A stretch of DNA of 64,000 nucleotides, taken from positions 109,182,001-109,246,000 of the forward strand of contig NC_043003.1 of the NCBI RefSeq assembly GCF_006345805.1, read 5' to 3'. Position 1 is the stretch's first letter; the number at the start of each line of letters is the position of its first letter. A model generated the notes under the pieces. That model was not told the DNA's origin. It did no database searches and worked only from the letters and a program-made list of their open reading frames with translations. The translations under genes were made by a program, and so were the position numbers. This document shows positions 3,851 to 61,192 of this stretch, in pieces. This DNA is from Octopus sinensis (lineage: Eukaryota).

Positions 3851-4110
3851 TTATCATTTTATATATATATATACATACATACATACATGCATACATACAT
3901 GCATACAGGTATGGTGATGCAAACAAGAAAACAGAACTCAGAATATTAATAAAAAATATATTTATGTGTGTGTGTGTATACACACACACACATGTATATA
4001 TATATATATATATATATATATATATATATATATATATATATATATATATATATTATATATATATATATATATATATATATATAATATATATATATATTAT
4101 ATATAGAAGG

Positions 4111-4161
4111 AGCTTCTACAGGACTAGAACTGTTTCATTCAAGAGAAATCTTCAGGAAGCT
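4111..4161 (-). ncRNA. Type I hammerhead ribozyme (left arm of the PLE)
   Basis: Minus strand reads agcttc-CTGAAGA-tttctcttgaat-GAAA-cag ttctagtc ctg-TA-gaagct. Stem I 6 bp, intact core, GUA cleavage triplet. Confidence 0.8.
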
Positions 4162-5533
4162 AGTTAACAAGATTTGTATTGGCATTTATACATTCAGGCA
4201 GGTTTAAAGGGGTGTTGGTGGGGGACTTTTTGGGGGTAGGCATAGCGCAAAATATCATACTTGGGGGAGTGGTCAAGGAGTCAGTGTTAAATTAGATAGA
4301 AGAATAAATAAAAAATTAAAAAATATATATATAAAAAAAAGGGAATAGAGTTTTAGGTAAATAAGGGGATTCTCACTTATACCTATGCACATATGTATAC
4401 ATATATACACACACATACAAACATATATACATATACAAACACACATACATACACACACACATATATACATATATATACACTTACCCATACATATACATAT
4501 CTACACATACACATATATGTATACATACACACACTCACATGCATACACGTATACACACATGTATATATACACACACGACCACACATACATATACATACAG
4601 AAAAATATATATACACATACACACACATACTCACATACACGCATACACACACATATCCACACACACACATGCACACACAGCACACTAGTCCCTATATACA
4701 CATATATACACATACACACATATATATATACACACACACACATATACATACATATATATATATATATATATACATATGTGTACCTATGCATACCTACACA
4801 TACACACATATATATACACATACAAATACAGACCCATTCCCTAATTTTAATTTTATTATCTTCATTTATTACTTTTGTTATCTTTGACCGCTGGTCACAA
4901 ACATCTTGGCTATGACAGCCAGTCCATTTATCTGTCTACTGGAAAACAAGCACTCATTCACTCACGCACACTCTTTAGCACGTACACTCACTCATTCGTA
5001 CACTCATACACATACACGCACGCACGCGTTATATTCATACATACATACATCTACATACATTCACGTATATACACATACGTACGCGTACCTACAGATTCAT
5101 GTCTACACTCTTAGAAGGCTAGTCTATACATATACACCAATAAATATAAATACACACACATACATATACACCTACATACAAATACATACATGTATATATA
5201 TATATATATATATATATTCACATATATATACACATATATATATATACATATATATATTATATATACACACATACAATAATACATATATATACACACATAC
5301 ACATACATACATATACACACATACACATACATACGTATACATACATACATACATCCATACATCCATACATAATACATTTATACACATACACACACCCACA
5401 CGTATACATATACATACATATATATACGCGCATGCATACACATACAAATACATACACATACGCATATACATATACATACATACATACACACACACACACA
5501 TATATATATATATATATATATATATATATATAT

Positions 5534-7026
5534 AACACACACCTCTTTTAACACACACCTCTAATTTTCAACCACCTTTATCTCATGTTAAATTATATTT
5601 TTATCTTATTTTATTTTATTTTATTTTTACTCTTATTCTACTTCCATTTATTCTCATTTTCATTTTCATCCCTTACCTTAACTCTTATAATTTTTATAAT
5701 TTTTATATTTCATTTCTAACTATTACATTGTATTTCTTATTTTATACTGTATTTCTTACTTTTATTTCTAATTTTTACCCTTACCCTCATTCTTACCCCT
5801 AACTTATCGCTTTACATCTCTATATATGTTTATTTACTTACCTATAGATCCACTTTTGACTATGCAAGCGTCCGTGTACATATGTATACGCATACATACA
5901 TAGACGCGCGCATATATGTACATGCATATTTTGATATCTTATAGCTATATCCATATGTCTCTGTGTGTGTGTGTAGGTGTATGTGTGCACGCACATACGT
6001 ACACACAGCCGTGTGTGCGTGCACGCATAGACGTGATTACTTTAATATCTTATATCTAGACCTGGAAGCGTGAGCATATGCGTGTGTGTATGTAGTGATG
6101 AGCGCGCGTATGTACATGTGAGTGTGTACACGTATAGTGTCCGTGTATACATGCGGATATTCTGTTGTATGTATGTGTACGCACGTGCGTGTGGGTGTGT
6201 GTGTGTTTATATGCATGTTTACACGCTAGTGCGTGTGTATGCTTATAGGCTTGGAGGCGTATATGTACGCGTGTATAGGGTGTGTGTATCCATGTTGGTA
6301 TGTATGTACTAGAAGTCCAAATAATTCAAGGAACCAGATTAAACGCTCAACAGCTCCGATTTACAACGCATTAGGTCCAGACGAAACTGTTGATTTACTG
6401 ACAATTCTACAACTAAATTTTATCAATCTCCTGACCACCATGCTTGGTCCTTACCTCTATACATCCCTTATCTTTATATTTTTTTATATTTTGTTACATT
6501 TTTATCGTGTTTTTTTACTTTTATTTTTATTTCTATTTCTATTTTTACTTTATAACCTTATGCCTTTACATTTATTTATATTTCTTTATATTTCTTTATA
6601 TTCTTTATACCCCCTTTACATCTCCGTATATCTCTTTATCTTTATGCTCTACATTTTTATATTTTTCTATACTTACACTTTTTATACATTTTTTATCCCT
6701 CGTCCTGAATTCTCGCCCATCTTCACGTATATACATGTATTTATTTATTTACATTACTTCAACATCCATTTTTCCTCATCCTACATTGAGAGAAGAAAGA
6801 GATGGACGCTTCAATTCTATGCTGCTGCCGCATTATGTCGTACACGAATGGGAGGATTTGCATCCCCAACCAAGAATTTCTGATGTAACACATGTCCTTG
6901 TGGAAGCTGTTGTGCGCGGCTGAAGAAGGCCACAGACATACATTATGCATTGTTATAAATCTGTCTAATAAAGGCCCGAAACATATGTACCGCTGAATCC
7001 TTCGCATCATGTTTTTATTTTGATCA
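5534..7026 (+). mobile_element. Non-coding PLE-derived HHR element inserted in the (TA)n of the left arm
   Basis: Absent from the mirror arm (about 10360-10380), flanked by (TA)n on both sides, and carries an HHR near its 3' end. Confidence 0.7.
6916..6993 (+). ncRNA. Type I hammerhead with extended stem II and palindromic stem III
   Basis: gcgg-CTGAAGA-aggcc[acaga...tctgt...]ggccc-GAAA-catatg-TA-ccgc. ACATATGT is self-complementary. Confidence 0.8.
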
Positions 7027-7844
7027 ATATATATATATATATATATATATATATACATACACACACATACATATACATACATACATATACAAATATACGC
7101 ACACACATACATACATACTCATATACACATACACGCACATACACATGTACATGCGTACCCGTACACACACACACACACGCGCATCCATATATACACATAA
7201 GTACACACATGCGTAAAAGTATACATGTATCTATGCTTACACATACACACACACACACACGCGCCTCCTTATATTCATACTTACATGCATACTCAAAAAA
7301 TAAGTAAATAGTAAAATATATATACGCGCAGTTATTCATACATGCATACTCAAAAAATAAATAATAAATATTAAGTATATGTACGTGCAGTTACCTATTA
7401 TATAGACGGATACATACATATAAACTTACACACATATATATATATATATATATATATATATATATATATATACATATATACACATATACATACATATACA
7501 TATATATATATATATACACACACACACATACACATATATATACATATACATACTTACACACATGTACAAATAGATACACACATAGATAACTCTACGTACC
7601 TACATATACATAAACAGGGGCAGGTGGTTTTATCAGGGCAGTTGCAATTGCTATCGGACGTTGGATGGGCCTCGGAAAAAGTAGATATGTTAAGTTTTTT
7701 CACATTGTTGTTGGCTAGGTTCCTGGCTAGATTGGGCGTGGTAGAGTAGGAGAGTCTAATAGTGTTCTTATTTAGGATAGTGTAGTACTTATGTTGGGGG
7801 GGGGAGTGTTTCTGTAGGAGAGTGAAGAAGATTTTAGCTACAGG

Positions 7845-59358: not shown

Positions 59359-59728
59359 TGTATTAATTGAAACAAAAGTCATGTTTCAACAGAAATATGG
59401 TAACAAAGGGGTTAAAATTATTTAACTTAACAACCGTCTTCAAAATTTCCTGTTAATTTATATTCAAATATTAGCATTAAAAGTGACAATGTTATTTGAC
59501 AAAATTCTTTACCATTTTGAAAAGCAGTGTATTTCTAAATAAATATGGTAACAAAAAGGATGAAGTGATCTAAATCAAAGCCATTCATCAAAATTTCAAT
59601 TTAAATCATTGTCCCAACATCATCTTAATGATGGCAATGTTATTTTACAAATAACAAATTCTTCATTATTTTCAAAAAATTAATTGAAATGAAGGCAGAG
59701 TATTTCAACATATGTGATATCAAAAGTG

Positions 59729-60157
59729 TAGGCGCAGGAGTGGCTGTGTGATTAGTAGCTTGCTAACCAACCACATGGTTCCAGGTTCAGTCCCACTGTG
59801 TGGCACCTTGGGCAAGTGTCTTCTTCTATAGCCTCGGGCCGACCAAAGCCGAGTGAGTGGATTTGGTAGACAGAAACTGAAAGAAGCCCATTGTATATAT
59901 ATATATATATATATATATACATATATATATGCGTGTGTGTATACATTTGTGTGTGTGTGTCCCAACATTGCTTGACATCACTGCTGGTGAGTTTATGTAC
60001 ACTAAACTTAACAGTTCGGCAAAATAAGCTGAAAGAATAAGTACTAGGCTTACAAAGAATAAGTCCTGGGGTCAATTTGCTTGACTAAAGGCGGTGCTCC
60101 AGCATGTCAGCAGTCAAAATGACTGAAACGAATAAAAGAATATAAGAATAAAAGAAT
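59729..60157 (+). mobile_element. Well-preserved composite octopus-type SINE
   Basis: tRNA-like head tggctgtgtg...ggttcagtccc, CORE-like ccttgggcaagt, internal (TA)n/(TG)n and an aagaata tail. Many partial copies occur elsewhere in the window. Confidence 0.8.
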
Positions 60158-60729
60158 AGCATCTAACTCTACCAAATTCTAAGTTGGTAGCCAAGAATTG
60201 TGAATGCCATTAATTGTATGGATTGTGATGGCACAGCAGAATTTGATGACTATTTCGTTATATTGCATTTCTAAATTCAACTCTTCTCATGGGAAAAAAA
60301 TGCTTTTTATCAGAAGAAGAATGAAGGCTGGGCATCAGATATTTTAAGCCAGTTCAGCATATAATGTTTCTAGAACCAATGGTATGAGAAATTGTTACAT
60401 CAAGAACTTCATGTACTAAAAGGCATTTGTATTATGAAAATAAAAAAGGAATATAAAATGCTATACATGTGTGTGGGTGTGTGTGGGTGTGTGTGAATAA
60501 ATAAAGAGAAAGAGAGAGATACATATCATCATCATCATCATCATTTCAACATCCACTTTTCCATGTCAGATGGAGTGTATTTGAGATTTTCTACAGCCAG
60601 ATGCAATTTATCTCACCAACACTGAACCGTTTCCAAGAAAGACAATATTTCTCTCATGGTCAGAAAGTTTCTTGCAGTATATTTAAATATCATTTCTAAT
60701 ATATGTATATACATATATACCTATATCTA

Positions 60730-61192
60730 TAATACAAGCTACTGGTGAGTGTTAATGTAGATGTGAAATCACTGGTGATGTGGCTATGTCTGGTGCTTAG
60801 GGAGCTTCCCCCCCACCTGACAGTAAATAAGACGGTGGCTATGAGTTGTTTTGACTCTTATTTCTATCAATACTGGTGCTGTATAGCACCCTCAGTTGCT
60901 TTAGTGACATATATTTTTGCCTTTCAGTTGAAAAATTGCTAACAAGCCTCTCTTATTATTTATAATTTTCTTTGTTACCATTTATGAAATCACTTTATGA
61001 TTTCTCTGGTGATTTTATAAGCTGACAAAGTTGAACTGAGTTTAACTCAAGGTGCTGTTGAGAGCCATTGATGAGCAGTAATTTAGAATCGAAATCCCTG
61101 CTGATCTGGCTATTCCTGGTGCTTAGGGAGCTTGCCTCCCTTATTAGTAAATAAGACGGTTGCGTTATTGTGGTTATGAGTGGTCTTGATTC
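60730..61192 (+). mobile_element. Degenerate retrozyme-like element with two tandem HHRs 326 bp apart
   Basis: agcta-CTGGTGA-...-GAAA-tcactggtga-TG-tggct (60737-60785) and agcca-TTGATGA-...-GAAA-tccctgctga-TC-tggct (61063-61111). Both are followed by ctggtgcttagggagctt...agtaaataagacggt. Confidence 0.6.

Follow-up and report, generated by a model that had tools for sequence, protein, structure and literature searches.

Hammerhead motifs at the ends of Penelope-like and probably derived elements in a 64-kb stretch of the Octopus sinensis genome

A stretch of 64,000 nucleotides (nt) of the Octopus sinensis genome (NC_043003.1, positions 109,182,001 to 109,246,000 of the forward strand; hereafter the window, numbered from its first letter) contains ten sites that an earlier note, made from the letters alone, had listed as type I hammerhead ribozymes. 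The ten sites are real hammerhead motifs, mostly in decayed copies, and we consider it highly probable that they lie in terminal repeats of seven element families, of which four are linked to Penelope-like elements (PLEs) and the other three likely descend from such elements, and for whose active forms self-cleavage as a double hammerhead of two copies on one transcript is predicted. Judged from sequence comparison, Penelope-like open reading frames (ORFs) tie in families A, B, and E (Hydra type) and C2 (Neptune type), and families C, D, and F are likely nonautonomous derivatives. The genome searched comprises 2.72 Gb in 13,516 contigs; the window has a GC content of 35% and 180 tandem-repeat rows.

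The order stem I, core, stem II, GAAA, stem III, NUH, stem I is present at all ten sites. With a strict-core descriptor, four window sites were recovered (4111 on the minus strand and 6916, 11360, and 50530 on the plus strand), compared with 0.15 on average over 20 block-wise dinucleotide shuffles; with one core mismatch allowed and a palindrome filter applied, seven window sites were found, six of them on the earlier list, versus 0.5 in six shuffles. For an unselected sample, 60 stretches of 10 kb (600 kb) were taken at round positions from the 20 largest contigs and scanned strictly, without the palindrome criterion. This sample yielded 15 motifs, versus 0, 0, 0, 1, and 0 in shuffles (mean, 0.2), so that motifs are in excess in both the window and the genome sample. 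Perfect palindromes were present in 8 of the 15 motifs and in none from the shuffles, and 7 of the 15 had a (TA)5 tract no more than 300 nt away on their 3′ side, against a background of 16% (P = 0.005). Chance matches in AT-rich, repeat-rich DNA would fit with the lack of any Rfam match in the window at the gathering threshold, and the relaxed scan does return about 0.5 chance matches per window. As an explanation of the ten sites, chance is nevertheless refuted by both excesses and by the finding that every site belongs to a multicopy family in which the motif is present in the typical copy, and we regard it as practically impossible. One additional relaxed, hammerhead-like match with G8A, at 21344 to 21388 on the minus strand, is at about chance level.

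The genome sample corresponds to a density of about 25 motifs per Mb (Poisson range, 14 to 41), or about 40,000 to 110,000 per genome; as six of the 15 motifs lie in three close pairs, and as chance may account for one or two, this range is generous. Motifs that are this common are missed by the Rfam gathering threshold in the window. With four motifs in 64 kb, the window is no outlier relative to the genome sample (P = 0.08), and it is an ordinary sample, mostly of dead end-pieces. More than 15 further motif types were seen in the flanks of the fetched loci. The notion of a dense and diverse hammerhead population is thus borne out by the density and by these extra types. At L113, L090, L105, L115, and L187, differing PLE end-pieces are nested or lie head to tail in a single (TA)n tract, which suggests that the same sites served for landing more than once.

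The state of the individual sites qualifies the original count: the arrangement stands at all ten coordinates, yet five sites are decayed and only the four named above pass the strict descriptor. The damaged sites are 25204 (G8A), 48440 (GTAA, a broken GAAA), 48966 (stem II mostly deleted), and 60737 and 61063 (one core change each). The U4C at 55667 is the state of its own family, family E. The near-palindrome at 11360 is due to a private base seen in 1 of 42 family A copies, and 37 identical copies have the loop TTCTAGTC; likewise, the canonical A6 at 50530 is private, position 6 being U in 19 of 20 relatives. Both sites therefore appear better than their own families solely through private changes.

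Self-comparison and genome searches resolved the sites into seven high-copy families, A, B, C, C2, D, E, and F, rather than unrelated singles. The statement that stems and flanks are unrelated fails for three pairs, namely, 4111 and 11360 (98% identity over 197 nt), 48440 and 48966 (82.5% over 280 nt), and 60737 and 61063 (77% over 104 nt). A first look at the genome gave 1277 candidates for A, 1243 for B, 2531 for C, 2860 for D, 2538 for E, 147 for F, and 3413 for C2, which are not copy numbers. For families C, D, and F, 30 loci each were chosen by likeness to the window copy and reach 1.5 kb to either side. Core and palindrome are intact in 41 of 42 aligned copies of A, 33 of 36 of B, 20 of 32 of C, 15 of 32 of D, 20 of 35 of E (U4C counted as intact), and 2 of 47 of F; these counts refer to the best matches to the window copies, and overlapping loci count some copies more than once.

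Three of the ten sites (4111, 6916, and 11360) fall inside a single nested insertion of 7.4 kb. The segment from 4106 to 11497 reads as one insertion with two family A ends, one short and one long, facing outward from an axis near 7845. In a self-comparison, 4106 to 4302 is 98% identical to 11220 to 11415, 7261 to 7395 is 100% identical to 10025 to 10159, and 7617 to 8067 is self-inverted. On the minus strand, 4106 to 7844 is an inverted, truncated 3′ portion of family A with the short 3′ end, which is interrupted by family B and maps to the natural element L054; its hammerhead (4111 to 4161, minus strand) has an intact core, a GUA site, a U·U at the base of stem II, and a stem III of 4 bp with an 8-nt loop. 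On the plus strand, the 3′ end of the family A ORF (7846 to 8523), encoding a CxCX5C linker and a GIY-YIG-type endonuclease, is followed by a 3′ untranslated region (UTR) of about 2.9 kb (8524 to 11359), in which 67% of the sequence is in alternating purine-pyrimidine runs and 18 tracts of (TA)5 or longer occur, and which aligns with L054 and is therefore part of the element. The second hammerhead (11360 to 11410, plus strand) is intact, and the element runs on to the long 3′ end near 11497, where (TA)n begins. In L054, the order is hammerhead, ORF, 3′ UTR, hammerhead. Of the 12 family A loci with both inverted ends, 11 have one long and one short end (L002 and L005 being one insertion), which is the "tail" signature of PLEs.

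The frame at 7846 to 8523 has 150 scored genome matches, with longer ORFs in other copies and frames of up to 807 amino acids. The family A protein combines reverse transcriptase (RT) and GIY-YIG domains, with DKT, YRDDG, a CxCX5C linker, one cysteine within the GIY-YIG region, CxxC, and CxH, and without CCHH; it has RWR where the Hydra clade has RWK. Based on these motifs and on likeness by eye to the published Hydra alignment (supplement of PMC8557442), family A is assigned to the Hydra clade. Pfam gave no relevant match for the family A or B ORFs; a VtrA_C match lay below the cut-off and was taken as chance.

In four family A copies, the 3′ UTR measures 2.9 to 3.8 kb, with 15 to 18 tracts of (TA)5 or longer and 44 to 67% alternating runs, versus 7% in the background. 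It hosts nested PLEs, namely, family B in the window and family C3 in L054. About 3 kb of (TA)n, the sequence that family A targets, thus lies within the element itself, which is a little new. As the 3′ UTR is both rich in (TA)n and host to other PLEs, part of the proximity of hammerheads to microsatellites is cargo. The earlier statement that the sites lie mostly beside (TA)n holds as a count, a (TA)5 or (TCTA)4 tract being found within 140 nt on the 3′ side of 7 of the 10 sites; the window background for (TA)5 within 300 nt is 23%. Among the fetched loci, a (TA)5 tract on the 3′ side is no more than 230 nt away in 28 of 30 for A, 21 of 30 for E, and 10 of 30 for F.

Family B is represented by a 5′-truncated 3′ UTR and pseudo-long terminal repeat (pseudo-LTR) at 5545 to 7031 (plus strand), nested between (TA)n tracts within family A and 98.2% identical over 1497 nt to the ORF-bearing copy L212. 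Its hammerhead (6916 to 6993, plus strand) has an intact core, the palindrome ACATATGT, and a GUA site. An ORF with RT and GIY-YIG domains, of a second Hydra type and 33% identical to that of family A, is located about 1.8 kb upstream of the motif in 6 of 10 long B loci. This ORF is also covered by contigs from four sequencing runs, conjectured to be of RNA, which reveal no ends, strand, or joints and were not counted as evidence. The protein shows DKT, a CxCX5C linker, and CxxC and CxH around the catalytic E and N, without CCHH and with RWA in place of RWK. By these motifs and the likeness to the published Hydra alignment, family B is assigned to the Hydra clade as a second PLE.

A third Hydra-type PLE can be recognized in family E, again by its encoded motifs. 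In the window it comprises a pseudo-LTR plus a short inverted piece (55913 to 55995) at 55622 to 55995 on the minus strand, and its hammerhead (55667 to 55718, minus strand) features the family-fixed U4C and ACAGCTGT. The motif lies 1.0 to 1.45 kb downstream of a Hydra-type endonuclease with CxxC and CxH in 10 of 30 loci, the ORF being partial and restricted to the GIY-YIG part. The CCGAUGA core created by U4C is exact in 34 of 51 family E copies, and U4 is kept in sister families. Family E and its sister Hydra families, with 58 to 63% amino acid identity in the endonuclease, have the same ACAGCTGT and the same stem I; among relatives at 57 to 68% endonuclease identity, a homologous motif was found in 3 of 20 fetched, with stem I and ACAGCTGT unchanged although the flanks barely align. 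Conservation of the motif in flanks this divergent indicates purifying selection on the motif in the E clade, as read from the alignments, and speaks against the view that families diverged to keep apart from their sisters. The earlier proposal that ORF-bearing PLEs and retrozymes are the source of the motifs agrees with RT and GIY-YIG ORFs upstream of the A and B motifs, ORF parts upstream of those of E and C2, and copies that end in (TA)n.

Family C2 occupies 50490 to 50655 (plus strand) as a putative Neptune-type pseudo-LTR with a hammerhead at 50530 to 50565; its family core is CUGUUGA (A6U), the window A6 being the private base mentioned above. It is 69% identical to the pseudo-LTR of the ORF-bearing family C3, and a Neptune-type ORF piece was found upstream in 2 of 20 C2 loci (L405 and L408; 68 to 74% to the L371 protein). 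This C3 protein, L371, shows a CX2-5CxxC linker, CCHH-type cysteines in a C-terminal GIY-YIG domain, and a weak Pfam GIY-YIG match (E = 0.0016), so that C2 and C3 appear to be Neptune-type PLEs, with the clade assigned by motif alone. Family C3 (L369 to L398) is young, with a copy nested at L054:6500-7420 in a (TA)n tract of the family A 3′ UTR, and CUGUUGA is found in 29 of 29 readable cores from 30 loci. Family C, an element of about 210 nt resembling a solo pseudo-LTR with a fixed 5′ start (25107 to 25310, minus strand), has a decayed hammerhead in the window (25204 to 25237, G8A); the minimal ACGT motif of the family, with a GUU site, is very similar to that of C2.

A further, very young Neptune-type PLE (L233:61-2860 and L229 to L258) has copies that are 99% identical, open frames of 784 amino acids, and the palindrome ACCGGT, and when read by eye its core carries an apparent U3-A8 swap. 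A scan of the 600-kb sample for U3-A8 cores gave 0 matches, versus 0 to 5 in shuffled sequence. Natural U4C, A6C, and U3-A8 hammerhead variants have been published, of which U4C and A6C retain some activity (PMC3088659). For the A6U core, no report was found in the hammerhead, retrozyme, and octopus literature searched, a search that did not extend to subscription papers and bioRxiv supplements, and ctgttga and ccgatga have no whole-word occurrence in the supplement of Craig et al. (PMC8557442). The family-fixed cores CUGUUGA (C3 and C2) and CCGAUGA (E) and the apparent U3-A8 with ACCGGT may therefore be regarded as a little new.

Families D and F are noncoding and look like non-LTR retrozymes. 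Family D, with a head-to-tail unit of about 465 nt, extends over more than one unit length at 48301 to 48885 on the minus strand (hammerhead 48440 to 48514, GAAA broken) and has an inverted partner at 48890 to 49145 on the plus strand (hammerhead 48966 to 49004, most of stem II deleted). Upstream sequence is repeated downstream in 7 of 30 D loci, with a period of 448 to 469. Family F is an old tandem unit of about 320 nt at 60737 to 61196 (plus strand) with two decayed hammerheads 326 nt apart; upstream sequence is repeated downstream with periods of about 315 to 330 nt, other spacings occurring at some loci, and the low intactness given above for its 47 aligned copies includes overlapping loci counted repeatedly. 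Direct-repeat hammerhead pairs with a period of about 500 to 550 nt and other palindromes, seen at L273:9230 and 9776, L303, and L152:79 and 577, are likely further retrozyme-type families.

The folding analysis was based on natural copies representing 26 families; L290, L057-422, L298, and L273+4662 were left out as doubtful or decayed. The monomer stem III is absent or of positive energy in 22 of the 26; its energy is near zero in one further family, and it is weakly stable in A, K, and L152. Most long palindromes have self-duplex energies of −5 to −19 kcal/mol, and the window motifs of A and B gave the paired form when cofolded. By predicted energies, the suggestion that a palindromic stem III favors dimers is therefore upheld. 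The topology of a double hammerhead requires that stem III and stem I are both exchanged between the copies. Four contiguous stem I pairs are possible in 27 of 650 ordered mixed pairs, and nine pass both stem tests, mostly via decayed copies. The other 623 are excluded by stem I alone, so that mixed dimers of distant families are unlikely according to these models, with no need of the palindrome to block them.

The idea that the palindromes were selected to differ, so that each family dimerizes solely with itself, draws on about 20 kinds of palindrome among the 26 families and on symmetric changes between related units (D versus L152; F versus L221 and L262). Furthermore, no mixed pair among the seven window families equals the homodimer in both stems, except with the decayed C2, whose own homodimer is unstable. 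A role of the palindromes as family-specific locks, however, is not supported, and we judge this idea improbable: family E and its sisters share both ACAGCTGT and stem I, identical palindromes recur in unrelated families, as with ACATATGT in B and L057b, and ACGT is common to at least three families (C, C2, and I). In addition to the barrier posed by stem I, a dimer on the same transcript needs no lock, and drift of the palindromes accounts for their diversity.

The arrangement of the copies points to the following putative life cycle. A tandem copy, an arrangement observed directly in the DNA, would be transcribed through both pseudo-LTRs, and the two motifs would pair by the palindromic stem III and a swapped stem I, probably aided by the element protein, so that the unit RNA would be cut out and may circularize. 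The GIY-YIG nuclease would then nick (TA)n, and RT would presumably start at internal AU-alternating sites 10 to 110 nt downstream of the cut site and pass through the unbroken hammerhead of an uncut or religated template; early stops and inversions would leave the solo, mostly dead end-pieces of the window. The observed end points downstream of the cut site are at about 10 to 25 and about 90 nt in family A and at about 70 nt in family E, in both cases where the element itself has a short AU-alternating stretch, and family B, inspected by eye, ends likewise. Because copies are unbroken across the cut site and 5′ repeats lie hundreds of bases upstream of it, the template would have to be uncut or religated RNA. 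In the study of the anole Poseidon element (PMC11167929), RT was shown to start internally and the ribozyme cut only with protein.

Several points speak against self-cleavage as a double hammerhead. The seven-sequence alignment of the E clade shows invariant stems I and III and no compensatory double change, i.e., conservation rather than covariation (a stem II pair of family F is A-U in 10, G-C in 5, and mixed in 2 copies, both changes being of CpG type). The ORF search around families C, D, and F (30 loci each, 1.5 kb to each side) linked none; family A could, in the models, fold stem III as a monomer; and cleavage failed in 8 of 9 retrozyme dimers from Xenopus (bioRxiv 10.64898/2026.07.22.740005). 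A6U is fixed in two Neptune families, C3 and C2, and hammerhead mutants of anole Poseidon still insert in vitro, with no RNA sequencing ends at the site (PMC11167929). The last two points, together with the U4C majority in family E and the fact that insertions always hold an unbroken motif, would also be expected if the same elements kept the motif as a folded or dimerizing RNA signal for protein binding, RT start, or translation, with cutting weak or dispensable. We nonetheless consider such a signal function rather unlikely, as most families retain an exact catalytic core and NUH site, one Neptune family appears to carry the compensatory U3-A8 swap at a pair important for catalysis, and natural U4C and A6C variants retain some activity (PMC3088659). 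Domestication by the host, with ribozymes acting on host transcripts at the locus, has no direct support here, some amniote hammerheads having been so described (PMC7229834); with five of the ten window copies decayed and all of them within ordinary repeat copies, it is most improbable.

Cleavage by the active forms as double hammerheads remains the reading we prefer. A wider picture, which is offered tentatively and is in our view open to doubt, is that hammerheads number in the tens of thousands in this genome and belong to dozens of coresident PLE families, forming a largely orthogonal set of dimer ribozymes. Lineages that amplified recently might have fixed core changes supposed to be crippling (A6U in two Neptune families and U4C in one Hydra family), with either a new catalytic variant rescued by the RT protein or cutting tuned down on purpose, and family A, which brings along some 3 kb of (TA)n, its own target, might seed microsatellites and landing sites for other PLEs. 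If true, this would provide a direct test set for what PLE hammerheads do. Young, nearly identical, ORF-bearing families with contrasting cores and palindromes (A, B, and the two Neptune families) would allow side-by-side tests of cleavage, dimer formation, and cross-pairing.

Elsewhere in the window, broken RT fragments at 36305 to 39811 (minus strand) and 40256 to 41055 match RVT_1 (E = 3.5e-19) and zf-RVT and are flanked by (TTA)n arrays; the fragments at 36305 to 38225, considered as a motif-linked RT, were read as a LINE-type (long interspersed nuclear element) element unrelated to the hammerheads. Tandem units of 62 to 66 nt of a very common repeat lie at 15379 to 15667, a 39-nt array lies at 26860 to 28401, and a 2.3-kb (TCA)n array at 45225 to 47533 is preceded by extended arrays of (TTA)n and (TTG)n that start at 41465.

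The window sites are new members of an already described kind of sequence. The Hydra clade of PLEs, including the octopus element Hydra-1_Obim with a hammerhead and a preference for (TA)n, was described by Craig et al. in 2021 (PMC8557442). Families A and B share with it the C-terminal GIY-YIG domain, DKT, the CxCX5C linker, CxxC, CxH, and the lack of CCHH, and further common features are a hammerhead with near-palindromic stem III, insertion into (TA)n, an inverted truncated partner, and a one-sided tail. They differ in that units of the Hydra clade are generally below 3 kb, whereas A and B measure about 4.4 to 4.9 kb; the microsatellite 3′ UTR of A spans 2.9 to 3.8 kb, the tail is about 70 to 75 nt here versus 30 to 40 nt there, RWK is replaced by RWR or RWA, and at least three Hydra families occur in the window, compared with the single octopus Hydra family listed there. 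In another study, 31 recently active PLE families were reported in an octopus (PMC13282606); the word "hammerhead" is absent from the accessible part of this 2026 octopus repeat paper. With Neptune-clade PLEs, C3 and C2 have in common the CX2-5CxxC linker, two cysteines inside GIY-YIG, and a minimal ACGT hammerhead; the CUGUUGA core sets them apart, in a clade assignment made by motif only.

Non-LTR retrozymes have been proposed as derivatives of PLE pseudo-LTRs (PMC7229834; Li et al. 2026, bioRxiv 10.64898/2026.07.22.740005). Like these, families D and F consist of noncoding head-to-tail units of a few hundred nucleotides with one type I hammerhead each (PMC7229834), whereas they mostly comprise one to two units, often inverted, and no parent PLE was found for them. 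Palindromic dimer-type hammerheads in PLE pseudo-LTRs, with many families per genome and solo or inverted copies, have been reported before (PMC4209133, PMC6765202, and PMC7761336). The minimal and short-palindrome hammerheads of metazoan PLEs (Cervera and de la Pena 2014, PMC4209133; Perreault 2011) correspond to those described here in their type I fold, their palindromic and weak stem III, an additional base that some families have after A9, and the dimer model, as well as in the many families per genome, the predominance of solo truncated copies, and inverted pairs a few hundred nucleotides apart. In contrast, the palindromes in O. sinensis often reach 8 to 12 nt, A6U and U4C cores are fixed within families, and the density of about 25 per Mb amounts to more than the 2,000 to 9,000 per genome quoted there, as determined with different descriptors.

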